Shown here: piece by piece, positions 3,213-53,228 of the stretch
Layout of the letters: the number at the start of each line of letters is the position of its first letter
Position numbering within the stretch: the first letter of the stretch is position 1
Source of the DNA: an uncultured Syntrophaceae bacterium
GTDB taxonomy: Bacteria > Desulfobacterota > BSN033 > UBA1163
Direction: 5' to 3'
Assembly (NCBI GenBank): GCA_964390545.1
Contig: CAYMJV010000001.1
Location: forward strand, 30,282-94,281
DNA: 64,000 nt
Notes under the pieces: generated by a model
Databases searched by the model: none
What the model was told of the DNA's origin: nothing
Seen by the model: the letters and a program-made list of their open reading frames with translations, nothing else
Translations under genes and position numbers: made by a program

Positions 3213-3349
3213 CCCCGACCGAAAGGTCGGGGATGTAAGGGCTGTCCACCGAAGGTGGACAAAGAAATCTGTTAAGAAATGATAAGGTAACCAAAGGTTA
3301 CAAGGTTCGTTTTTTAAATTCCCAAAATGCCCTGATCGGAAGATCAGGG
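3213..3349. repeat. Array of four short GC-stem hairpins with purine loops (ccccgacc-GAAA-ggtcgggg; gtccacc-GAA-ggtggac; ggtaacc-AAA-ggttac; ccctgatc-GGAA-gatcaggg) in the leader of the amino-acid ABC operon
   Basis: Inverted repeats read directly at 3213-3232, 3244-3260, 3286-3302 and 3330-3349. Confidence 0.6.
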
Positions 3350-3435: not shown

Positions 3436-4335
3436 ATGAAAAAGTTTTTTTTCACAGCGTTAGCGGTTGTTTGGATGCTTTCTTTCATTGCTGGACCAAC
3501 CCTGGCTGACCAGACCATGGATCAGATCGAGAAGACCGGAAAGATCAAAATAGGTTTCAGGGAGGATTCTATCCCCTTTGCTTTCATAGACCCGAGGGTG
3601 GGAAAGCAGATAGGTTTCTCCGTGGACATGGCCCAGCTCCTTGCTGAAAACCTCTCCAAACACTTTGGCAAGAAGATCGAGATTGAGCCAGTTACCATTA
3701 CCACAAAGACCCGTATCCCCATGATCACCAACGGAACTATTGATGTGGAGATGGGATCCACGACATACACGCAGGAACGGGAAGATGTGGTGGACTTCAG
3801 CCTGACTTTCTTCTTCTCCGAGACGGCCTTTCTTGTACCCAAGAATAGTCCTATCAAGACCAAAAAAGATCTGACCGGTAAACGGCTGGGGGGCGCTCAG
3901 GGAACGACGAACCTCAAAGCCATGGAGGATCAAACCAAGGCCGGAGAGTACAAACCAAAAGAGATCGTCACCGTTGAGGGACATGCCCAAGGATTCCTCA
4001 GTCTCAAAACCGGTAAAATCGATGCTTACGCCACAGATCGAAGCCTTCTGATGGGTCTTGCTTCCAAAGACGAAAATCCGGGCGCCTGGCGGACAACGGA
4101 TTTTGCCATCGCCTATGAGCCTTACGGGTATATGATGCGAGAGGGCAATTCGGATTTCAGGGATTTCGTCAACAATACCATCCTTTCGGCGATCAAGACT
4201 GGTAAATTCTATGAGCTTTATGACAAGTGGATGGGACCCAAAGGACAGACCCCGATTCCCATGTCTCAGGCTTACAAAGACTACCTGAAACTCATTGTCT
4301 ACCCCATGAAGGACGATTGGTGGAAGAAGCAATAA
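3436..4335 (+). CDS. Polar amino acid ABC transporter substrate-binding protein (SBP family 3, GlnH/GltI-like), secreted
   Basis: Signal peptide followed by a family-3 SBP signature (IKIGFREDSIPFAF; GTTNLKAMED; GKIDAYATD). RBS AAAGGAGGA lies before the ATG. Confidence 0.85.
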   Translation: MKKFFFTALAVVWMLSFIAGPTLADQTMDQIEKTGKIKIGFREDSIPFAFIDPRVGKQIGFSVDMAQLLAENLSKHFGKKIEIEPVTITTKTRIPMITNGTIDVEMGSTTYTQEREDVVDFSLTFFFSETAFLVPKNSPIKTKKDLTGKRLGGAQGTTNLKAMEDQTKAGEYKPKEIVTVEGHAQGFLSLKTGKIDAYATDRSLLMGLASKDENPGAWRTTDFAIAYEPYGYMMREGNSDFRDFVNNTILSAIKTGKFYELYDKWMGPKGQTPIPMSQAYKDYLKLIVYPMKDDWWKKQ

Positions 4336-4446
4336 GAACAGTCATCCCAAGACAAGAGGCCGAGCGTTCAGGATGTTTGCCTCAGTCATATGAGGAGACG
4401 CCGGCCTCGACAGACTCTTATGCTGTGGGTGCTCCCCGCTCTTGCG

Positions 4447-4469
4447 AAAAGGCCGGAATCCGGCCTTTT
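4447..4469 (+). terminator. Intra-operon rho-independent-type hairpin (AAAA-GGCCGG-aat-CCGGCC-TTTT) between the binding-protein and permease genes
   Basis: Perfect 6-bp GC stem with a 3-nt loop, flanked by an A-run and a T-run. This is the common attenuator position after SBP genes. Confidence 0.55.
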
Positions 4470-4527
4470 CGCCTTCCCCGGGTATTGAAAGAGGTTTGAT
4501 TGTCAATTGTAAGAGGAATAATAAGGA

Positions 4528-5244
4528 ATGGGACTTGCATATAAGTTTGACTGGAGCGTGCTGTGGCGCGAGCCTTACGGAGAATGGATGCTGCAGGGGA
4601 TATGGCTGACTTTGCAGTTGGGGCTTCTCGCATGGATCATTGCTCTTTTTCTGGGAATCTTTGTCGGCACGATGCGTGCTGCGCCATGGAAGCTGTTGCG
4701 CCGGGTGAGCACGATCTACGTGGAAATCTTTCGGAATGTTCCCTTCATTGTCCAGCTCTTCTTCTGGTTCTATGCCGGTCCCATGATCTTCGGCAAGACC
4801 CTTCAGTTCAAGATCAACGCCATCTCCGGGTTGAATTATTACGCTGCGGTTGTCGGCTTGGGGCTTTACACGGCAAGCCGCGTGGCTGAGCACGTGAGGG
4901 CCGGGTTTGCCTCCATCGGCCAAGGTCAATACCAGGCAGCTCTGTCCACGGGCATGAGTCAGTGGCAGATGTACTGGCACGTCATGATTCCCCATGCGCT
5001 GCGCCTTATCCTTCCACCCCTTACGACGGAATTCCTCACGATCTTCAAGAACTCTTCGGTGGCCATGACCATCGGTGTGGCCGAGACCACTTTCATGAGC
5101 TACAAGATCGATTCGGATACATTCCACGGGTTGGAGGCTACGACGGGAGCCATGTTTGTCTACCTTGTCCTGGGAATGGCGGTGGTAAAGACCATGAGTT
5201 ACATTGAGAAAAAATACCGGATTCATGGACTGGTAGGCAGATAA
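4528..5244 (+). CDS. Amino acid ABC transporter permease (HisM/GltJ family)
   Basis: Multi-TM protein with an EAA-like loop (QYQAALSTGMSQWQ) in the operon. Confidence 0.8.
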   Translation: MGLAYKFDWSVLWREPYGEWMLQGIWLTLQLGLLAWIIALFLGIFVGTMRAAPWKLLRRVSTIYVEIFRNVPFIVQLFFWFYAGPMIFGKTLQFKINAISGLNYYAAVVGLGLYTASRVAEHVRAGFASIGQGQYQAALSTGMSQWQMYWHVMIPHALRLILPPLTTEFLTIFKNSSVAMTIGVAETTFMSYKIDSDTFHGLEATTGAMFVYLVLGMAVVKTMSYIEKKYRIHGLVGR

Positions 5245-5245
5245 T

Positions 5246-5902
5246 TTGTTTGATGCGATCATCAACAACCTTTCCTACCTTTTGAAGGGATTCCTGACAA
5301 ACCTTGAATTGGCGATCTGCGCTCTTGCAGGAGGAATCTTCTTGGGTATCTTGGTGGGTCTGGGGCGGATCTCCAAGAACCGTTGGGTGTATCACAGTGT
5401 AACCCTTTACGTGAACTTTATCCGAAATATCCCCCTCATCCTGGTTATCTTCTGGTTCTACTTTATCATGCCCATCCTAGTCGGTAGGCCCCTGAATCCT
5501 TTCATCTCTGCGGCCATTTCCTTTGTGGTCTTTGAAGCGACCTATTTCGGAGAGATCTGCAGGGCAGGCTTTCAGTCCATCAGCCGTGATCTGGTAAGCG
5601 CTGCTTACTCAACAGCCCTTACTTACACTCAGACAGCTCGTTACATCCTCGTGCCCATCGCCATCCGGCGGATGCTCCCCAGCATGATCACTCAAAGCAT
5701 CATCACCTTTCAGGATACCAGCCTGGCTTATGTCATCGGACTTCAGGAGTTAGTTCGTAGAACCACCATCGTCGACAGTATGGAGGTGCGCTCCATCCAG
5801 CTTTACAGCTTCGTTGCCGCGCTTTTCTTTGTCATCTGTTTTGTCGGTTCTCGCATCAGCCGTTACTATGAGATTAAGAGTCGAGAGGCCAATATCCTAT
5901 GA
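5246..5902 (+). CDS. Amino acid ABC transporter permease (HisQ/GltK family); probable TTG start
   Basis: Multi-TM protein with the [23 protein letters not shown] motif. The start overlaps the upstream stop codon. Confidence 0.75.
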
Positions 5903-6624
5903 TAGAAATCAAGAACGTGAGCAAGTGGTACGGTGACCTCCAAGTCCTGAACGGCATCAACGAGACCATCGACCGGGGCCAAACCGTAGTCATCTGTGGC
6001 CCCAGCGGTTCCGGAAAGAGTACGCTCCTTCGGTGCATCAACGGCCTGGAGCCTTACCAGAAGGGTGAGATCACCGTGGAGGGTATCTCATTAAGCGACC
6101 CCAAAACGAACCTTTACAAGGTGCGCCGGAAGATCGGCATGGTCTTTCAGAAGTTCGAGCTTTACCCCCATATGACGGTCCTGCACAACATTACCCTGGC
6201 TCCCATGAAGGTACTGAAAAAGTCGAAGAAAGAAGCTGAAAAGAGGGCTATTGCACTTCTTGAACGTGTAGGCATTCCTGAAAAAGCGATGGAATACCCG
6301 GCGAACCTCTCCGGCGGGCAGCAGCAGCGGGTGGCTATTGCCCGCAGCCTAGCTATGGATCCGGGCTACATGCTCTTTGATGAACCCACCTCTGCTTTGG
6401 ACCCTGAAATGATCAAGGAGGTGCTCGATGTCATGATCGACCTGGCCAAAGAAGGGATGACCATGATCGTGGTCACCCACGAGATGGGCTTTGCCCGCGA
6501 AGTGGCCGATGAGATCATCTTTATTGATGAAGGCAAAATCGTCGAAAGGGGAACGGACGAGAGTTTTTTTGCAAACCCCAAGAGCGAACGCACAAAGGCA
6601 TTCCTCAGTCAGATCCTGGTCTGA
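5899..6624 (+). CDS. Amino acid ABC transporter ATP-binding protein (GlnQ family)
   Basis: Walker [13 protein letters not shown] signature LSGGQQQR and Walker [12 protein letters not shown]. Coding sequence overlaps the upstream gene by 4 nt. Confidence 0.9.
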
Positions 6625-6649
6625 GGCCCGGCTGAAAGGGGAGGGGAAG

Positions 6650-7372
6650 TTGGCAGAGAAGGTCATCGGCATACTCGGCGGCATGGGGCCGGAGGCAACC
6701 TTGGACTGTTTTGAAAAAATCATAAGGAATACCCCGGCCGGAAAGGATCAAGACCATCTGCGGGTCATTATTGATTCAAACTCCAAGGCGCCTGACCGAA
6801 CAGCAGCCATTCTCGGTAAAGGGGCTTCTCCACTGCCGCTGTTGGTTCAAGGATGCAGGACGCTGCAACAGGCGGGCGCCGATTTCATCATCATGCCCTG
6901 TGTGTCGGCTCATTTTTACCAAGAGGAGATGCGACAACAGATAACCCTTCCCTTTGTCTCTATTTTTGACGTTGTGGCCGAGACCATTTCCCATGATCAT
7001 CCGGAAATCAAAGTGGTGGGGTTGCTGGGTACCACCGGTACGGTTCGCAGCGGTCTTTTTCAAAAAAGACTGAGAGAGGATGGAATCGAGACCATTGTTT
7101 GCGAGGATAAGATCCAGGAACGGGTCATGGCCGCCATCTACGATATCAAGAGCAGTCAGGCGGATCGGCCGCGAGAGGCAATTACGGATGATCTTGTTGC
7201 TGCCGCCCAAAGCCTCATCTTCCGGGGAGCCCTGGGGATTGTGGCCGGCTGCACAGAGATTCCTCTTGCTTTGAGTCAACGCGACCTGTCTGTTCCCTAT
7301 TTTGACGTCCTTCTTCTTCTTGCCCGTGCGGCCATCCGCCTGGCCGGAAAAGAGCCTCTTTCTCTGCGATAA
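6650..7372 (+). CDS. Aspartate/glutamate racemase-family protein (aspartate racemase-like); TTG start after GGGAGGGGAAG
   Basis: N-terminal IGILGGMGPEAT motif, a central cysteine (PCVSAH) and a second catalytic region GCTE identify the Asp/Glu racemase family. Confidence 0.7.
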   Translation: MAEKVIGILGGMGPEATLDCFEKIIRNTPAGKDQDHLRVIIDSNSKAPDRTAAILGKGASPLPLLVQGCRTLQQAGADFIIMPCVSAHFYQEEMRQQITLPFVSIFDVVAETISHDHPEIKVVGLLGTTGTVRSGLFQKRLREDGIETIVCEDKIQERVMAAIYDIKSSQADRPREAITDDLVAAAQSLIFRGALGIVAGCTEIPLALSQRDLSVPYFDVLLLLARAAIRLAGKEPLSLR

Positions 7373-7589
7373 AGACCGTGTATTTTCATGAGTTCAATAA
7401 AGAGCAACCGAATCGCGCGCAGCCAGCTGGAAGGGCAAAAGCAGGGTTACGGCTGTGTTCAATCTTGAGAGGACAGGATGTCTATGACTGTCGAACAACT
7501 GGAGTGAGCCTTAAGTTAAGTGTATGAATGACAATATGGTGATGGGCGAAGTGCCTGTCTTATGATTTAGAAGAATGCAAGGAGGAAAA

Positions 7590-8594
7590 ATGGACCTCAG
7601 TCGTTTTCCACGTCGACGTTATACCGAAGGACAAACACCTATTGAAAAACTTTCCCGCTTTTCCAAACAACTGGACGGCCCCACGATTTACATGAAAAGG
7701 GATGATCTTTTGGGACTTGCGGCAGGGGGCAACAAGACCCGCAAGCTGGAGTTTGTGGTTGCAGATGCCATCACAAAAGGCGCTGATACGCTCATCACCT
7801 GTGGAGCAGTCCAGTCCAACCACTGCCGCCTGACTCTTGCCGCAGCCGTCAAGGAGGGGCTCAAGTGCAGGCTGATTCTGGAAGAACGGGTGCCTAAGAG
7901 TTACAATCTTCAGGCCAGCGGCAACAACTTCCTGTTTCAATTGATGGGAGTGGAGAAAATCAAGGTCGTGCCGGGCGGTTCGGATATGATGAAAGAGATG
8001 CAGACTGAGGCCGATGAAGTGGCAGCTGCCGGCCGCAAAGCATATATCATCCCCGGGGGAGCTTCCAATAGCCTCGGCGCTTTGGGATATGTGGCCTGTG
8101 CTGAGGAGATCTTGAATCAGATCTTTGAAAAGGGCCTGAGGATCCACCGCGTGGTCTGTGCCAGCGGCAGTGCAGGGACCCATGCCGGCCTCGTTACGGG
8201 CTTTTGCGGTACCAACAGCAATATCCCGGTGGTCGGAATCAACGTCAGCCGCACCAAGGAAGCTCAGGAAGAACTCGTCTACGGGTTGGTCCAGAAAACC
8301 GCGGAGCATGTCGGTGTTGAGGGAAAGATCCCCAGGGAAGCGGTGCTCTGTTTCGGGGATTACGTTGGAGCGGGGTACTCCCTCCCCACCCCCGGCATGA
8401 CCGAGGCGGTTAAACTGCTGGCACGTACCGAAGCGATCCTGCTGGATCCGGTCTATACCGGCAAGACCATGGCTGGAATGATCGACCTTGTCCGCAAGGG
8501 GTATTTCAAAAAGGACGAAAACATCCTTTTCGTCCACACCGGCGGATCACCGGCCCTTTATGCTTATAGGGAAACCTTTCTGAGCGAAGTTTAA
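7590..8594 (+). CDS. PLP-dependent D-cysteine desulfhydrase / ACC deaminase-family enzyme
   Basis: GGNKTRKLE lysine motif and overall DcyD/ACC-deaminase fold signature. RBS AGGAGG lies 5 nt before the ATG. Confidence 0.75.
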   Translation: MDLSRFPRRRYTEGQTPIEKLSRFSKQLDGPTIYMKRDDLLGLAAGGNKTRKLEFVVADAITKGADTLITCGAVQSNHCRLTLAAAVKEGLKCRLILEERVPKSYNLQASGNNFLFQLMGVEKIKVVPGGSDMMKEMQTEADEVAAAGRKAYIIPGGASNSLGALGYVACAEEILNQIFEKGLRIHRVVCASGSAGTHAGLVTGFCGTNSNIPVVGINVSRTKEAQEELVYGLVQKTAEHVGVEGKIPREAVLCFGDYVGAGYSLPTPGMTEAVKLLARTEAILLDPVYTGKTMAGMIDLVRKGYFKKDENILFVHTGGSPALYAYRETFLSEV

Positions 8595-13862: not shown

Positions 13863-14501
13863 CTACCCCCGACCAATCAATTCCCGGGCCTTTTCCACAG
13901 CACTTGCCGCCTCTGGGGCATAAGCATCTGCCCCGACATCCTTAGCAAATTTCTCAGTCACAGGTGCTCCTCCCACCATCACTTTCACCCTGCCTCGAAC
14001 CCCTGCCTCAACGAGAGATTCAATGACTTCCTTCATCTTCGGCATCGTTGTCGTCAGAAGGGAGGAGAGGCCCAAGATGTTCGGTCGATTCATTTTCACT
14101 GCCTCAACAAATCTCTCTGAAGGAACATCAATTCCCAGATCGATTACCTGAAATCCCGCTCCTTCCATCAACATTCCCACTAAATTCTTGCCAATATCAT
14201 GAAGATCCCCTTTGACGGCACCCAGAACAATCTTCCCGGCAAGCTTTACCCCTGTCTCAATCAATTTCGGACGCAATATATCCATTCCGGCCTGCATCGC
14301 CCTAGCCGAGATCAGGACCTCCGGCATGAAGAATTCATCTCTGCGAAATTTCTCTCCGACCACATCCATTCCGGCAACAAGTCCATTGCTCAGAATCTTT
14401 GACGGGGGAACATTCGCATTCAGTGCTTCCTGGACCAATTTGGGCATTTCCTGGTAATTTCCTTTCTGAAGCTCTTCAGAGATCTTTTGCAGCAGTTCCA
14501 T
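13863..14501 (-). CDS. Cobalamin-binding corrinoid protein (MtmC/MttC/MtgC-like)
   Basis: B12-binding DxHxxG motif (GDLHDIGKN) with the C-terminal Rossmann-like B12 domain. A preceding helical cap domain is present. RBS AAAGGAGAGG lies before the ATG at 14501. Confidence 0.8.
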   Translation of the reverse strand: MELLQKISEELQKGNYQEMPKLVQEALNANVPPSKILSNGLVAGMDVVGEKFRRDEFFMPEVLISARAMQAGMDILRPKLIETGVKLAGKIVLGAVKGDLHDIGKNLVGMLMEGAGFQVIDLGIDVPSERFVEAVKMNRPNILGLSSLLTTTMPKMKEVIESLVEAGVRGRVKVMVGGAPVTEKFAKDVGADAYAPEAASAVEKARELIGRG

Positions 14502-14607
14502 CTCTTCCTCTCCTTTTCGCATTAGATTGTATTACCCTGGATCCTTGATTATTGAGACCACTACGCTCCTGAACACTATAGGCAGAGCATAACAAATCTT
14601 ATTAACA

Positions 14608-16044
14608 CTACGGTCTTATTTCCGGAAACATCTTCTTCAACTGATCATTTAACTCTTTCGGTAGGCCCAACGGCTTGTGATCCCTGAGGATCGCCTTGGC
14701 GATCGCTCTGGCCTTTTCCTCCACAGAGGCTCTTCCCGATTTCTCCCAATTGACCCTTAGTTGCCGGTCGCTCAATTTAGGGGTAAAGTGTTCCCTGCGC
14801 ATCCATTGTACCGTGTGATGATCACACAGAAAATTTCCACCGGGACCCACTCTACGGTAAGCATCCAGAGCAATGGTCTCTTCCGAAACTTCAATCCCTC
14901 GGACAGCTCTCATGACCATCCCTATGATCTCGTCATCGATTACATACTGTTTATAGCTGGCAGTGCTTGCAAACTCCACCAATCCAGCCGCATCATGGAT
15001 GAAATTGGAACCCGAGAGGGCCACCAGCACATTGGTGATCGCTTTTTCATAGCCATTTTGGGTATCTACGATCTTGGAGTCAGACATTCCAGCCGTCGTA
15101 TAATTAGGCAGATTCACATACTGGGCCATGGCGGCTGCCCCTGCATTAATTAATCCCATTTCCACCGATCCGCTCACATAGCCCATCGTCTTTAAATCCG
15201 TGGAGGTGGCTGTGCAGGCATAGAGGACCGGGGTACCAGGGTTAACCAGTTGCGTGAGCACAACGCCACTTAAAGTCTCAGCATGGAGACCGGTGAGAAG
15301 GCCTGCGATCGTCACCGGTGCGGTTGCACCCGTCAGAGGCTCTGCTGGAATGGCAACGGGCATCCCAGCCCGAGCAATGTGACAGAGGATATCGCCATAG
15401 AGATCATCAATCTTAAGAGGGCTGACCACACAGGTGATGAACGAGATGAACGGCCTCTCCCTTAAGGCTTTGGGGCTTCCTGCAATGATCTCCCCCATCT
15501 TGATGATATCGAGAGTTCCTTTAAGCGTGTAGATCCCTCCCATGAGGTGTTTTGAGCAGTTCAGGATCGATGAGTGAAATCGATTGATGTCCACCTCCTG
15601 AGGCGGAAGCTCATTGGGATAAACGGGAAGAACCATAAAATGGATATTTTCCAAGGCATCACACAAGCGTGCAATATCCCGCACATCCTTCAAAAGGGTT
15701 GGACGTTTCTCATTGGTTTCGAGATCGATCACATTCAGGACCGTCCCTCCTGTTCCGAGATAGACATTCTTTCCTTCACAATAGAGGTCATGCTTCTCTT
15801 CCCTGCCACAAAGGACAACTTTCTTTGGTGCTTTATCGATTGTATCCTCGACCATTGATCTCGATAATTTAACGAGTTTCTTTGAAGTGTCGCATCCCGC
15901 CCCATGTTTCTGAAACGCTTCGAAAGCTAACTTGCTATGAACTTCCACCCCAATTTCCGAGAGAAGGGTAAGGGCAGATTCGTGAATTTTGCGAATGCCT
16001 TCATTCGTCAGAGGTCGGTATTGACCACCAGCGATCGGTTTCAT
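14608..16044 (-). CDS. MttB-superfamily methyltransferase (non-pyrrolysine; substrate:corrinoid methyltransferase), copy 1
   Basis: MttB-family blocks (YLGTGG, DLETNEKRP, LCDALENIHF). Uninterrupted ORF with no in-frame TAG. RBS AAAGGAG lies before the ATG at 16044. Confidence 0.8.
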   Translation of the reverse strand: MKPIAGGQYRPLTNEGIRKIHESALTLLSEIGVEVHSKLAFEAFQKHGAGCDTSKKLVKLSRSMVEDTIDKAPKKVVLCGREEKHDLYCEGKNVYLGTGGTVLNVIDLETNEKRPTLLKDVRDIARLCDALENIHFMVLPVYPNELPPQEVDINRFHSSILNCSKHLMGGIYTLKGTLDIIKMGEIIAGSPKALRERPFISFITCVVSPLKIDDLYGDILCHIARAGMPVAIPAEPLTGATAPVTIAGLLTGLHAETLSGVVLTQLVNPGTPVLYACTATSTDLKTMGYVSGSVEMGLINAGAAAMAQYVNLPNYTTAGMSDSKIVDTQNGYEKAITNVLVALSGSNFIHDAAGLVEFASTASYKQYVIDDEIIGMVMRAVRGIEVSEETIALDAYRRVGPGGNFLCDHHTVQWMRREHFTPKLSDRQLRVNWEKSGRASVEEKARAIAKAILRDHKPLGLPKELNDQLKKMFPEIRP

Positions 16045-16108
16045 TTTTTCTCCTTTCTTTTTGTGCACCCCTAATGCCGAAGAGAATCCTCTTGATGGGT
16101 CTCTTCTC

Positions 16109-17545
16109 TTAGAGCCGTATATCAAACCGCTTCCGGATCTCCTGGTCGGTTTCTACATCAAGTCCTTTGGGCAAGTGGGTTTTAAGTATTTCCCTCGCCT
16201 TCCTTCGGGCCCTTTCGCGACCGTCAAGAGATCCTGAATTTTCCCAGGTCTCCCTAGTCTGACGGTCTCCGAGCGTTTGTCGAAAATATTCCTGTCTCAT
16301 AAATTTGATAGTATGCATGGAAGAAAGGAAGTTCCCAGAAGGTCCCACTTCTCGAAGGGCCTCCAATCCCAAGGTCTCGCTGTCAATCTGGATCCCTTTG
16401 AGGAGACGGAGGGCCATCCCGATGATCTCATCGTCAATCACAAACTGCTCGTAAGCAACCGCTCTCATTGATTCCAACATACCGGCGGCATGGTGAATGT
16501 AATTTGAGCCTGCCAATACACAGAGGCAGACCGAGTACGCCTTCTCATAACCTGCCTGGATATCAGGGAGCTTCGATTCGGTAAGGCCAGCGGAATTATA
16601 ATTGGGAACTTGAATCGATTGAGCCATTTGAGAGATTGCTGCATTCATCAATCCAAACTCGATGCCTCCTCCCACATAACCCATTGTTTTTAAATCGGCC
16701 ATGGAAGGGATGGCACCATAGAGAACCGGAGAACCAGGGTTCGCCAGTTGTGTAAAAACGATTCCAGACAGTTGTTCAGCATGCACCTGAGCTAACGTCC
16801 CGGCCAATGTGACTGGAGAGGTTGAACCTGCCATAGGAGCTGAAGAGAGAGCTACCGGGATCTTATTTCTTATAATTTCTAGTAAGACTCGGGTTGTTTC
16901 TGTCGCAAAATGTAAAGGGCTGATCATCCAACTTGTGACAAAGGAGATAATCGGTCTCTTCACTAAGGCCTCTTTCCCTCCTGCGATCATCTGGGCCATT
17001 TCGATCACATCTCTGGCTGTTTGAACAGATTGGGCAGCTGCCATGACATGTTTGGTCGTATTAGAAAGGGAGGCATAAAACTGGTTGATGTCCATCACCT
17101 CTTTAGGAATGTCCTGAGGAATACAGGGTCGAAGGTAGAAATGGACGTTCTCCAATGCATCGACAAGCTTTGCAAGCTGTCCGATATCTTTTAACACTCC
17201 GGGCCTTGCCTTTCCTGTTCCCAAATCGAGGATAGTCAACGCAGCCCCCCCTGTTCCCAAATAGACCCTCTTATCTTCAAGGATCAGATCATTCTTTTCT
17301 TCTTGACCTGCCATCAAGAATTTGTGAGGAACAAGTTTCAGGCCCTCTTCAACAAGTGATGCCGGGATGCGAACGATCACTCCTTCGATCTTTGCCCCAT
17401 GTTTCTTAAAAACCTGCAGGGCTTCTTCTAACTCCACCTTGACCCCAATCTCTTCAAGAATTTTGAGAGACGTTTGATGAATTTTATTAACGTCTTGTTC
17501 GTTTAAAGGCCTAAACTGTCCTCCCACTAACGCTTTCACATTCAT
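16109..17545 (-). CDS. MttB-superfamily methyltransferase (non-pyrrolysine), copy 2 (paralogue of copy 1)
   Basis: Same blocks as copy 1 (YLGTGGAALTILDLGTGKARP; LVDALENVHF). The two copies are about 45% identical by eye. No in-frame TAG. Confidence 0.8.
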   Translation of the reverse strand: MNVKALVGGQFRPLNEQDVNKIHQTSLKILEEIGVKVELEEALQVFKKHGAKIEGVIVRIPASLVEEGLKLVPHKFLMAGQEEKNDLILEDKRVYLGTGGAALTILDLGTGKARPGVLKDIGQLAKLVDALENVHFYLRPCIPQDIPKEVMDINQFYASLSNTTKHVMAAAQSVQTARDVIEMAQMIAGGKEALVKRPIISFVTSWMISPLHFATETTRVLLEIIRNKIPVALSSAPMAGSTSPVTLAGTLAQVHAEQLSGIVFTQLANPGSPVLYGAIPSMADLKTMGYVGGGIEFGLMNAAISQMAQSIQVPNYNSAGLTESKLPDIQAGYEKAYSVCLCVLAGSNYIHHAAGMLESMRAVAYEQFVIDDEIIGMALRLLKGIQIDSETLGLEALREVGPSGNFLSSMHTIKFMRQEYFRQTLGDRQTRETWENSGSLDGRERARRKAREILKTHLPKGLDVETDQEIRKRFDIRL

Positions 17546-29921: not shown

Positions 29922-30470
29922 TCAGAGCATTCGGACTTCTGCCTTTATCGTTAATTCCTCTCCCTTTTTTAGAACCTCTTTAGGAGAAGGATTCAAAATA
30001 TGAACAATCAATCCATCCAGTTCAATGATCACCCCTTCACCCAGGATATGCTTTCCAGGGATGAGGGTGAGGGTCTTTGACCCTTTTTGAATCGACTGGG
30101 GATAGGCAAGAGGAGCCTCGGTATAAATCTCAATCTGAGTGGGTCGGTCTAAGGGAATCTCGGCCTGGAAAGAGGCCGCGCCTGAAGTCCCATATATCGT
30201 CTCCCCTCTTTGCCGGGGCCGAACCATGATTCTTTCGGTATCGCCCGTTCCTCCCTCCTGTTTGCCCTGAGCAAGGATCTCTCCAGTCTCGAGATTCCTA
30301 ATTCGAACAAAGGCACCCCCTACGCCTGAACCAATAACTTTGGAATCCTTTGCAACCACTCGGACAATAATTTTTGTCGGAACCTTTTCAGCAGAATAAG
30401 ATGGGGATGTGAATAGAAAGATGATATGAGCTAAAATGAGAAAGAACGGCACAAATCTTCGGATTGTCAT
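29922..30470 (-). CDS. Secreted hypothetical protein (signal peptide, Gly/Ser/Thr-rich)
   Basis: ORF with an N-terminal signal sequence. No recognisable family. Confidence 0.5.
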   Translation of the reverse strand: MTIRRFVPFFLILAHIIFLFTSPSYSAEKVPTKIIVRVVAKDSKVIGSGVGGAFVRIRNLETGEILAQGKQEGGTGDTERIMVRPRQRGETIYGTSGAASFQAEIPLDRPTQIEIYTEAPLAYPQSIQKGSKTLTLIPGKHILGEGVIIELDGLIVHILNPSPKEVLKKGEELTIKAEVRML

Positions 30471-47957: not shown

Positions 47958-48518
47958 TTATTCCAAGATCTTCTTCAGGGCCTCGTCGGTCTTTCGTCCC
48001 CTCGGCCCATCTCCAGGAAGGTAGAGCATGACTCCTTTTCCGCTCCTTAAGGGAATGACCTCTATCTTTCCCTCTGAGGCCATTTTGCTGGTAAATTCAA
48101 TCGGGTCTTTGTTGAAATGTTTCCGGAAGGCATCATTTAACCCGCTGAAGACACTGTGGATACCCCGGTAAGGTTCTTTCCTCAATTTCTTTATCCCTTC
48201 GATGATGAACTCCTCTTCAGAAAGAGAGGAGGCTTGACCCCCGCCGATCAACCGGATGATCTCTTCTGCAGAAGGCCTTTGAGGAGCATCTCCAGGAAGA
48301 AAGAGCATCACCCCTCCTTTAAAAGCCCTCGTCTCAATCTTGCCCTCCTTGGCGAGTCTGGAGGTCGCCTCCACGGGATTAGTTCCGAAATACTTTCGAA
48401 AGGCTTCGTTGAACCCGCTGTAGACGCTGTGGATCCCCCGAAAGGGGTCCTTTCTCAATTTCTTGATCGCCTGGGTAACAAATTCTTCTTCGGTCAGTCT
48501 TTTTTCTTCGTCCGCCAT
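47958..48518 (-). CDS. Hypothetical protein made of two tandem ~90-aa repeats (EEEF..KKLRK.P.RGIHSV.SG.N.AFRK.F...P.E.TS..A.EGKIE......G.GVML.LPGD)
   Basis: Internal duplication obvious in the translation. No known family. Confidence 0.5.
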   Translation of the reverse strand: MADEEKRLTEEEFVTQAIKKLRKDPFRGIHSVYSGFNEAFRKYFGTNPVEATSRLAKEGKIETRAFKGGVMLFLPGDAPQRPSAEEIIRLIGGGQASSLSEEEFIIEGIKKLRKEPYRGIHSVFSGLNDAFRKHFNKDPIEFTSKMASEGKIEVIPLRSGKGVMLYLPGDGPRGRKTDEALKKILE

Positions 48519-48673
48519 GGGGCTCCCTCCTCCCAAATCAACACTTCGACTCCCCGGCCTGAAGGCCTGGGCTTGCCCTCGGCCTGAGACTTCGGCGTGA
48601 GCTCAGTCGAACGCTCGGGTCGAAGGCTCAGGGTTGACCCTGAGCGCCGCCGAATGGGTCAACCCTTTAGGTT

Positions 48674-49885
48674 CTACGATTCCTTCGGCTTTTTTAAATC
48701 GAATCCTTCTTTTAAAAGGGAATCCTTTAACTCCTTCACATCGACCTTCTTTTCAATGGCATTGAGAATCTCTGCCCTCCCCTTTGTCTCCCCGAGAAGG
48801 ATACAGCCCACGACCTTATCTTCTTTGAAAGTGATCTTACAATAAGTACATTTCTCGAGGTCACTCCTTACGACACAATCCAGCTTCTTTTCGGCATCGA
48901 TCTCACCGGCAGCCGTGAGGTCAATCCCCACTACCTTCAAGGTATTTGAAACGACCGTTCCTTCGTAGATGGCCTTTCCCCCAGCCATATTGATCCCGGC
49001 AACCTCTCCCTGCCGTTGGGCTGCTGGCCAGATCCCGTAAACGCGACCTCGATGCTCTGCCACATCTCCAGCAGCAAAGATCCCTTCGGTCTTTGTCTTT
49101 AATTGGTCGTCAACGAGAATTCCATTCTTCATCTCTAAACCCATTTCCTTGGCCAGCTGGATGTTAGGCCTAACTCCGGCCGAGATGATCACCATCTGAC
49201 CTTCAACAACCCTACCATCTTTAAGCCGTAATCCCTCTACTTTCTCTTTTCCCAGAATTTCATCTGATTGGCCATTGAGGAAGAAGGAAAAACCCATCTC
49301 CTCCATCTTTTTTTGTAATATCTGAGCTCCCGCTTCATCCATCTGCCTAGGAAGGATTCGCGGATTATGTTCAATAACGGCGACCTTTACCTCTCGCTTC
49401 AACAAAGCCCCCCCCGTCTCCAATCCGACGAGCCCCCCTCCAATCAGGATGGCCTGCTTCACCTTGGCCGAAAACTCCTTCATCTCGAGGGCATCTTTCA
49501 TGGTCCGCAGAGTGAAGACGCCCTTTTTCTCCACCCCTTTAATGGGGGGTACAAAGGCACTGCCCCCCGTAGCCACGAGAAGCATGTCATACGGATAGGT
49601 CTTCCTCTTCTTGCTGAGAACCTCTCTCTTGTCGGACCGGATCTCTCCGATCGGCTCCTCCAAATGGATGGAGATCTCCTTGCTCTCGTAGTACTCCTTC
49701 GTATGGATGGTGATGTCTTTAAGGCTCACCTCCCCTGCCACGTACTCTGGGAATCGAACACGATAATAAAAAGGATAAGCCTCTTCCGTAAAGATGTGTA
49801 TCTCCCCTTTTGGATCGGTCTCCCTGATCTTAATGGCTGCCCTTGCCCCTGCCGCACCATTCCCGACGATAAGATATCGTTTCAC
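48674..49885 (-). CDS. FAD-dependent pyridine nucleotide-disulfide oxidoreductase (rubredoxin reductase/NADH oxidase-like)
   Basis: Two Rossmann motifs (LIVGNGAAG; ILIGGGLVGLE) and an FAD C-terminal motif GDVA. Confidence 0.75.
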   Translation of the reverse strand: MKRYLIVGNGAAGARAAIKIRETDPKGEIHIFTEEAYPFYYRVRFPEYVAGEVSLKDITIHTKEYYESKEISIHLEEPIGEIRSDKREVLSKKRKTYPYDMLLVATGGSAFVPPIKGVEKKGVFTLRTMKDALEMKEFSAKVKQAILIGGGLVGLETGGALLKREVKVAVIEHNPRILPRQMDEAGAQILQKKMEEMGFSFFLNGQSDEILGKEKVEGLRLKDGRVVEGQMVIISAGVRPNIQLAKEMGLEMKNGILVDDQLKTKTEGIFAAGDVAEHRGRVYGIWPAAQRQGEVAGINMAGGKAIYEGTVVSNTLKVVGIDLTAAGEIDAEKKLDCVVRSDLEKCTYCKITFKEDKVVGCILLGETKGRAEILNAIEKKVDVKELKDSLLKEGFDLKKPKES

Positions 49886-51400: not shown

Positions 51401-51984
51401 CTAGTAATACATAGATACCAAAATTCCCCTTCCTAAACAAGCGAATTCTATTGCTCTTTGAACCCCCTCAGTTATGGGTTCTGGGGTAGAGAATTCGACA
51501 GGAATACCTCCGAAAATCTTATCAAGCGGACGATATTATTTTTTGCTAAGGGCAACAGCTGCTACCATTTCGTGGCTGGTTAAATGGGTTTAGATCGCGA
51601 TCCGACGATCAGCGAGCAGAGGATTCCGCCCTGCCTGCCGGCAGGCAGGTATAAGATTTTCTCCGGCATCCCTGCCAAATTCTGAAAAGTTCGTGTGTGT
51701 AACTGAGGGATTACTGCCCTTTTCTGGACATGGGCACCGGCATGGATTCCCTTTCCTTTTTATTGATACTTCGACGGCACCAAACCTCGACCTTTAGGAC
51801 AGGGTCAAAGACGCCGCTCAGTATCAACCCTGAGCAAACCCCGGGTGCTTGTCCTGAGCGCAGTCGAAGGATTAGACCGGGGATAGTCGAAAGGTTGATT
51901 TTGGAATATCCCTCTGGTAAGTTAAAATAAGTGTTACCAATCCAATCTGAGGAAACCCAAATCAAACATGCAGGGAGACTTACC

Positions 51985-52389
51985 ATGAAAAAGAAGCTAC
52001 TTTTAGGATGCCTCGTCATCTTTTTGGGAATGGGAATGTTTGTTTCGCGGGTACTGTCAGCCGATGCTGCGAGAATGACCAAGGATGAACTCAAAGCCTT
52101 ATTTGGGAATCCCGATTTGATTCTATTGGATGTCCGTTCCGGGAGCGATTGGAAGGATAGCGATTTGAAAATTCAAGGGGCCATTCGAGAAGAACCCGGG
52201 CAAATCAAATCCTGGTCTAAGAAGTACTCCAAGGAGAAGATCATCGTTCTCTACTGCGCCTGACCCAATGAAGGAACGAGTGCCCGGGTGGCACAACAAC
52301 TGATCAAAATGGGATATCCCAAAGTCTATGCCCTAAAGGGTGGCTGGGTGGAATGGTCTAAAAATAATTATCCAGTGGAGAAAAAATAG
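51985..52389 (+). CDS. Periplasmic (lipoprotein-signal) single-domain rhodanese with in-frame TGA at 52261-52263 in the active-site loop (YCA-TGA-PNEGTS): candidate selenoprotein, or a pseudogene
   Basis: RBS GGGAG before the ATG. Rhodanese motifs occur before the TGA (LLDVRSGSDW; IIVLYC). The frame is perfectly conserved after it (SARVAQQLIKMGYPKVYALKGGWVEW) to TAG 52387. A GUGCC-CGGGU-GGCAC hairpin lies 16 nt downstream. Confidence 0.55.
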
Positions 52390-52400
52390 AGTCGAAGCGT

Positions 52401-53228
52401 ATGTGGTTTCGATCTCCAATTGTCCTCAATGCGGGAACTCCGTTTCACATCCCGACAGAACAGTCCATCGATATTGCGTTAACCCTTGCGATGGCGGACC
52501 TGAAGGCAAAGTTCATCGATGCTGAAAGGGGGGCGGTCCGTTACAAGTCTATTCGTGGCTCTGAGGAGTTTGAACGTTATAAGGATCTGACAAGGGGATT
52601 ACGGTCCTTCGATCTTCGCTCTGTCAAAGACCGTGGACCGAGGCTCGCCTTCTGGACCAATATTTATAACACGGCCGTGATTCACGGTGTGATTGAACTG
52701 GGGCTGGAACGCTCTGTTAAGGAGTATCCTGGATTTTTCGATCGGATCACTTATGAGATAGGGGGATCTCGTTTTTCTCTTAATGAAATGGAGCATGGTC
52801 TCCTCCGTGGCAACCGGAGACACCCCTATCGGGTCCTGAAACCTTTCCGTGAAAGAGACCCGCGCCTCGAATTCGCCATTGTCCCCCTGGATCCAAGAAT
52901 CCATTTCGCTCTGGTCTGTGGGGCCAGGTCGTGTCCGCCCATCGGTTTTTATGAAGCTGAACAGATCGATTTCCAGCTTGGGCTGGCGGCCATGAGCTTT
53001 ATCAATAGCCCTCAGGTCAAGATCCTCCCCGAAGAGAAGACTGTTTTCATTTCGATGATTTTTAAATGGTATAAGATTGATTTTGGAGGGAGTGACAGAG
53101 CACTGCTCGACACTCTTTTGAACTACCTTGATGAGGGGAAGGATAAGGCCTTCCTTGAGGAGAATAGAAATCAGATCAGAATCCGGTATCAGCCTTATGA
53201 CTGGAATTTGAATCAATCGGAGAGATGA
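52401..53228 (+). CDS. DUF547-family protein
   Basis: LAFWTNIYNTAVIHG block typical of DUF547. Confidence 0.55.
   Translation: MWFRSPIVLNAGTPFHIPTEQSIDIALTLAMADLKAKFIDAERGAVRYKSIRGSEEFERYKDLTRGLRSFDLRSVKDRGPRLAFWTNIYNTAVIHGVIELGLERSVKEYPGFFDRITYEIGGSRFSLNEMEHGLLRGNRRHPYRVLKPFRERDPRLEFAIVPLDPRIHFALVCGARSCPPIGFYEAEQIDFQLGLAAMSFINSPQVKILPEEKTVFISMIFKWYKIDFGGSDRALLDTLLNYLDEGKDKAFLEENRNQIRIRYQPYDWNLNQSER

Follow-up and report, generated by a model that had tools for sequence, protein, structure and literature searches.

Whether an in-frame TGA in a gene for a rhodanese-like protein ends that gene or is read through as selenocysteine (Sec) is the question raised by positions 51985..52389 (+) of the 64,000-nucleotide stretch of DNA analyzed here (the window). 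Direct reading bore out the layout on which the original prediction of a Sec-containing sulfurtransferase had been built: the open reading frame (ORF) runs from an ATG (51985-51987) through the residues IIVLYCA to a TGA (52261..52263) and then continues for 41 sense codons (PNEGTSARVAQQLIKMGYPKVYALKGGWVEWSKNNYPVEKK) to a TAG (52387..52389). Read through the TGA, with the TAG as its true stop codon, the gene would encode an exported, single-domain rhodanese of 134 residues, with Sec at position 93 and with Cys91 (TGC, 52255..52257) as the first position of a CxU motif. The GUGCC-CGGGU-GGCAC stem-loop that had been placed 16 nt after the UGA was recovered by RNA folding as a bacterial SECIS-type hairpin (52280..52294, +), consisting of a 5-bp stem (52280-52284 with 52290-52294) and a 5-nt loop, CGGGU (52285-52289). 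On the same strand, a Shine-Dalgarno-like AGGGAG (51972..51977) was read 7 nt 5' of the ATG, and its GGAG core was invariant in an alignment of six loci. Further upstream, a consensus scan matched TTGGAA and TAAAAT separated by a 16-nt spacer (51901..51928, +; 9/12 matches). The number of such promoter-like sites in the region was not above that in shuffles, and this one lies within a block, TTGATTTTGG..CTCTGG.TAAGTT, kept in five related loci; it might conceivably serve as a promoter.

For profile searches, the U of the window protein was written as C. The protein matched the NCBIfam equivalog-level family NF041203 (rhodanese_LYCAU, "rhodanese-related (seleno)protein") with 181.9 bits (cutoff 115; E 3.3e-54), spanning protein residues 13-134 and positions 4-126 of the 126 in the profile. 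It also matched Pfam Rhodanese (PF00581; E 2.3e-15) across residues 32-126, a span that includes the TGA. The L-Y-C-A-U motif, after which NF041203 is named, is present in the window gene, the U being supplied by the in-frame TGA. NF041203 appears as the "Rhodanese-like form 3, CxU" selenoprotein in Table 1 of a 2026 review, in which Thermodesulfobacteriota are among the most selenoprotein-rich taxa (PMC13188914). Rhodanese-related sulfurtransferases were counted among the selenoproteins of the Sargasso Sea survey (PMC1088965). The Olavius algarvensis delta-1 symbiont was rich in them, and a UxU form was described there too (PMC1976440). Owing to the full-length match above the cutoff and the listing in the 2026 review, the gene is a member of an already known selenoprotein family, as the original prediction had proposed. 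The rhodanese gene was a correct catch and is a routine member, adding nothing new on a family known in the literature since 2005, for which NCBIfam has a curated model.

A protein database search identified 111 homologues, approximately 85 of which end exactly at ...LYCA, being either 91-93 residues long or N-terminally extended. These homologues are 52-95% identical to the window protein, and their ends imply that gene callers stopped at the same codon in each. Among full-length homologues, the residue at the TGA site was Trp, Cys, Ser (in many) or, rarely, Gln or Asp. Trp was found in six (P0001, P0005, P0019, P0037, P0057, and P0072), reflecting callers that read TGA as Trp. Another six (P0052, P0059, P0063, P0066, P0073, and P0092) carry Cys at the site, giving C-A-C, and locus L078 has TGC at the Sec codon; the alignment of Cys-containing orthologues with the TGA that had been put forward as a check therefore turned out in favor of Sec.

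At the DNA level, 22 genome and 80 metagenome loci were fetched, originating from Thermodesulfobacteriota or 'delta proteobacterium' metagenome-assembled genomes (MAGs), two Nitrospirota MAGs, and others, and the codon could be located in 101 of them. TGA occupied the homologous codon in 83 of the 101, across a range of 47-97% identity; the others had TCA (Ser; n = 14), TGC, TCC, TTA, or ACA (n = 1 each). Cys91 is nearly invariant in the family, Ser-type homologues included, and its codon in the 83 TGA-bearing loci was TGT in 42, TGC in 37, and TGA in 4. These last four (L017, at 3247-3255 of its sequence, L041, L046, and L065) read LY-U-A-U, one hairpin serving a pair of Sec codons spaced 6 nt apart.

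When a single 76-nt sequence was folded, the hairpin formed with ordinary stability (z = 0.44 versus shuffles), and its significance therefore rests solely on comparison with related loci. With 77 distinct TGA-bearing sequences aligned, RNAalifold predicted one helix only, which was the 5-bp helix at the position first proposed, and standard pairs were found in 99.7% of its cells. At the second pair, 65 sequences had UA, 10 had CG, and 2 had UG, while the fifth was CG in 74, UA in 2, and AU in 1, so that 2 pairs account for 13 compensatory cells. The double changes fall on third codon positions and are synonymous: AGU to AGC (Ser) with GCA to GCG (Ala), and GCC to GCU or GCA with GUG to GUA or ACU. 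In 500 column shuffles, neither the observed covariation score nor the observed paired fraction was ever reached (statistics that are inflated by kinship among the sequences), and sliding the 3' arm lowered pairing to 19-60%. The stem is short (5 bp) and lies over the conserved codons S-A-x-V-A, part of its conservation being protein constraint. Among the 18 homologues that lack the TGA, pairing falls to 56% of cells and the full stem is present in one; as it is missing in the other 17, the hairpin tracks the TGA and not the protein sequence alone. Position 2 of the loop is an invariant G, in line with bacterial SECIS elements, which are described in the literature as carrying a conserved G in a small apical loop (PMC1088965). 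A search with Rfam returned no SECIS family in the whole window at the gathering threshold or in 52200-52400 at a permissive threshold, where only chance matches (E > 3) were seen. With a hairpin that covaries, follows the TGA, and is mostly lost in Ser and Cys homologues, the SECIS reading of the original prediction was upheld. The comparative set, comprising 83 TGA loci, Ser/Cys variants without the hairpin, and UxU variants, provides a clean covariation-supported SECIS for the family.

Had the TGA arisen by a recent nonsense mutation, the alternative considered when the locus was first noticed, the gene would be dead at codon 93 and its downstream 41 codons would be decaying. Such a pseudogene would be consistent with a lone in-frame stop in one sequence and with the extra defects in a few related loci: L004 (3001-3402) contains an additional in-frame stop (KI-stop-GA), and in L079 (3262-3336) the frame is shifted by 2 nt inserted into the hairpin loop, each possibly a pseudogene or an assembly error. 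However, the TGA-bearing loci are too diverged to be copies of one recent pseudogene, and exactly 41 open codons follow the TGA in 77 of the 80 with enough sequence. Mean identity to the window was 71% over the 41 downstream residues versus 63% over 67 upstream residues, and non-consensus bases occurred at frequencies of 0.13, 0.13, and 0.355 at codon positions 1, 2, and 3, respectively. On the strength of this third-position excess, the downstream identity, and the retention of the 41 codons, the downstream frame is judged to be translated and under purifying selection. A pseudogene is thereby excluded, and the probability left to a nonsense mutation is negligible. Equally negligible is the chance that the TGA was created by a sequencing or assembly error, such as a misread TGC or TGT; one base away from a Cys codon would suffice, yet the same TGA recurs in independent assemblies from many samples, including the near-identical contigs L023-L026 (93-97% identity).

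The UGA could also be read as Trp, Cys, or Gly, by a near-cognate or suppressor tRNA or under an alternative code, or the 92-residue fragment could be the main product. Such decoding would agree with the Trp in the six caller translations listed above and with the Sec machinery not being seen in the window, where selA, selB, and selD were not found among the approximately 40 ORFs scanned with NCBIfam and no tRNA, including tRNA-Sec (selC), was found in the 64 kb; the fragment is favored insofar as Sec insertion efficiency is never 100%. In opposition to this, TGA behaves as a normal stop in this DNA and among the orthologues. It ends 19 of the 56 window ORFs of at least 150 residues, including the neighboring DUF547, fabH, lpxL, and rmlD genes, whose family profiles end at their TGA stop, and the terminal stops of the TGA-bearing loci were TGA in 41, TAA in 24, and TAG in 14 (n = 79). 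UGA is therefore not generally reassigned, and neither code 4 nor code 25 reassignment is indicated. Also contrary to non-Sec decoding are the covarying hairpin at SECIS distance with its invariant loop G and its full stem in just 1 of 18 non-TGA homologues, the aligned Cys, which is the classical Sec/Cys signature, and the curation of the family as a selenoprotein, while in the fragment a third of the fold would be missing, along with the active-site loop. We regard these outcomes, taken together, as very unlikely. It is instead highly probable, given the conserved UGA, the Cys homologues, the selected downstream frame, and the covarying hairpin that tracks the TGA, that UGA 52261-52263 is a genuine, SECIS-dependent Sec codon in an exported rhodanese belonging to NF041203. 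The locus should be annotated as one 134-residue selenoprotein; standard gene callers stop at 92 residues, as in the approximately 85 truncated homologues. Its source organism can be marked as Sec-decoding, and other TGA-interrupted ORFs of that organism deserve the same treatment.

One such ORF was found 22 kb away by a scan for other in-frame TGAs in the window. This second candidate selenoprotein gene (30470-29682, -) starts at an ATG near 30470, has its TGA at 29924-29922, and ends at a stop at 29684-29682. It encodes a signal peptide and 182 residues to ...AEVRML, followed by U-G-C-P-F-T-P-G-G-L-W-D, with 79 further conserved codons after the TGA. The great majority of the best 120 database homologues (n = 118) end at ...EVRML or a close variant. 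In five related loci, the TGA is retained together with the frame that follows it and with a CCCGG-AGGUCU-CUGGG hairpin located 15 nt past the UGA. Cys falls on the TGA in 90 of 92 full-length distant homologues (31-51% identity), within an invariant C-G-C motif. No Pfam or NCBIfam family was matched by the second protein or by 33 of its Cys homologues. A confident structural model (pLDDT 90.7) has two Ig-like beta-sandwich domains with just generic structural neighbors, and the gene is downstream of hemE-hemH-hemY both here and in related contigs. Selenoproteins with a UGC motif are listed solely in the DUF1573 and TlpA-type families (PMC13188914), neither of which was matched by this protein. 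The second gene may thus represent a selenoprotein family not yet catalogued, and it is a more novel lead than the rhodanese. As a further conserved-TGA gene in the window, it also lends indirect, independent support to the view that the organism reads UGA as Sec.

Other candidates for recoding in the window were rejected. The upstream or fused frames of 3460-5274 (-) and 47958-48752 (-) look noncoding on translation, and read-through past the TGA of rmlD, lpxL, lpxH, pepA, and DUF547 was discounted, as their family profiles already end at the TGA. Two Rfam PYLIS_3 matches on the minus strand (14988-15087 and 16486-16585; 56.7 and 43.4 bits) sit within two full-length MttB-family ORFs of 505 and 478 residues (genes 13863-17545), which adjoin genes for an MtgC-like corrinoid protein and a ProV-type betaine ABC transporter. 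Internal TAG codons are absent from the two ORFs, whose scores of 465.6 and 458.3 fall short of the trimeth_pyl cutoff of 525; the matches were set aside as coding homology rather than a pyrrolysine signal, and the ORFs look like non-pyrrolysine, glycine-betaine-type methyltransferases. At 6491-8594 (+), adjoining amino-acid and peptide ABC transporter genes, are genes whose products match the profiles of cysteate racemase CuyB (237.5 bits versus a cutoff of 190) and D-cysteate sulfo-lyase CuyA (546.5 bits versus 450). By these profile matches, this region is a predicted organosulfonate-degrading, sulfite-releasing module of the same organism.

The N-terminus of the rhodanese carries a predicted signal peptide for signal peptidase I (51985..52062, +; MKKKLLLGCLVIFLGMGMFVSRVLSA followed by DA, identified by sequence pattern). 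It begins with MKKK and continues through a hydrophobic core to VLSA, with the cut before DA and the conserved PRMTKDELK thereafter, and this type, with a basic n-region, a hydrophobic core, and a small-residue c-region, is conserved across homologues. It thus looks like an ordinary signal-peptidase-I signal on a protein that is probably exported. The lipoprotein-type signal peptide originally suggested was not substantiated: a lipobox Cys is typically at residues 15-35, whereas the sole lipobox-like Cys (LLGC) is residue 9, precedes the hydrophobic core, and is shared only by the closest relatives, others having V, T, A, or L there.

The active-site loop had likewise been described as two residues longer than the classical one, a claim that presupposes Cys91 as the nucleophile and is doubtful, as the alignments disagree. 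Ungapped HMMER alignments to 6mxv, obtained for both of its domains in a PDB sequence search and for domain 2 with the family profile, set U-PNEGT-SA on C-GGGFR-SA, placing Sec at the catalytic Cys in a loop of standard length and U+17 on the Gly of the G-Y motif. In alignments to GlpE (by hhalign), to YnjE, and to domain 1 of 6mxv, it is Cys91 that matches the catalytic Cys, at the cost of a 2-residue insertion. The PDB sequence matches were to 6mxv (E 3.8e-17) and 1qxn (E 3.8e-4), reaching 7.8e-24 and 1.6e-6, respectively, with the family profile. An AlphaFold model of the Cys homologue P0052, which is 52% identical to the window protein, had a pLDDT of 88.1 and matched solved rhodaneses with a Foldseek probability of 1.0; in it, a strand (90-94) leads into C95-A96-C97-P-N-D and a helix begins at residue 101. 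As the ungapped register needs no indel and U is found at that site in UxxG/UxxS rhodaneses, Sec93 is the somewhat likelier loop nucleophile. Both positions 91 and 93 appear to matter, given the near invariance of Cys91, in Ser-type homologues too, and the existence of UxU variants.

In the bacterial Sec pathway, the complex of SelB-GTP-Sec-tRNA(Sec) is recruited by the SECIS. Acting as such an element, the hairpin at 52280-52294 would recruit the complex at the UGA, Sec would be inserted, and translation would carry on for 41 codons to the TAG. The signal peptide would send the product out of the cytoplasm, and the active-site loop of its single rhodanese domain would carry Cys-Ala-Sec. There, Sec could take a sulfane sulfur or selenium atom as an Se-S(H) or Se-Se(H) adduct, and Cys91 could form a selenenylsulfide with it, resolving or protecting it. 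In an anaerobic bacterium of Thermodesulfobacteriota type, its likely role would be to transfer sulfur in the periplasm or to handle thiosulfate, polysulfide, or persulfide in redox reactions. A periplasmic sulfur carrier such as Sud would then be the closest analogue in function. Substrate, export, and chemistry are in each case predicted.

The rhodanese gene is followed, 11 nt after its stop and on the same strand, by a DUF547 gene (52401..53228, +; Pfam PF04784, E 6.2e-35) without a signal peptide, and the two are probably on one transcript. Of 72 TGA loci, 23 have a DUF547 gene directly downstream in the same orientation, versus 0 of 13 non-TGA (Ser- or Cys-type) loci, and the pairing is therefore lineage-specific synteny rather than a family-wide feature; no link between DUF547 and rhodanese was found in the searched literature. 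A more far-reaching and rather improbable proposal, which bears on function and not on identity, joins these elements. In it, Sec93 is the nucleophile and Cys91 its resolving partner in an exported carrier that forms a selenenylsulfide, conveys sulfane sulfur or selenium, and in this lineage is partnered with the cotranscribed DUF547 protein and, separately, the gene at 30470-29682 represents an uncatalogued selenoprotein family. If true, the rhodanese family would be a sulfur/selenium carrier rather than an ordinary sulfurtransferase.

Upstream and on the opposite strand is a DGQHR/DndB-like gene (start 51284, minus). Approximately 130-170 nt upstream of that start, a block at 51411-51458 (ATAGATACCAAAATT..CCTAAACAAGCGAATTCTATTG) was nearly invariant in six loci, the flanking intergenic sequence being otherwise diverged. 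Next to it is an intergenic insertion of approximately 440 nt (51460-51900), common to the near-identical contigs L023 and L024 and absent in L025, L027, L028, and L001. The insertion includes a 20-nt perfect palindrome (51630-51649; CCTGCCTGCCGGCAGGCAGG), and an 83-nt piece of it is present elsewhere in L001 too (90% identity). It may be the remnant of a small mobile or repeat element.

Compared with other NF041203 proteins, the window gene has the same L-Y-C-A-U motif, a single rhodanese domain, equal length, and a SECIS hairpin after the UGA. There is no structural difference, and the gene is another member, from an uncultured Thermodesulfobacteriota-like organism, in whose lineage a DUF547 gene comes next (23/72 loci). 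The UxU form of the Olavius algarvensis delta-1 symbiont apparently shares both the family and the motif position but differs from the window gene, which has Cys (TGC) first and a single Sec (PMC1976440). Rhodanese forms 1, 2, and 4 (UxxS, UxxG) and TsoB (NF045694, UxxxxU) resemble the window protein in their rhodanese fold and in carrying Sec in the active-site loop, but they have other motifs and a different domain architecture and lack a Cys two residues before the Sec; to TsoB, the window protein gave a weak, partial match (33.9 bits, E 9.1e-09) below the cutoff of 805. Sud of Wolinella succinogenes (1qxn), GlpE (1gmx), and the Francisella protein 6mxv compare with the window protein in the single rhodanese domain but have a Cys nucleophile and no CxU motif, and identity to them is just 16-29%. 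Sud is a periplasmic polysulfide-sulfur transferase that is exported to the periplasm, and the window protein may resemble it in function as well.
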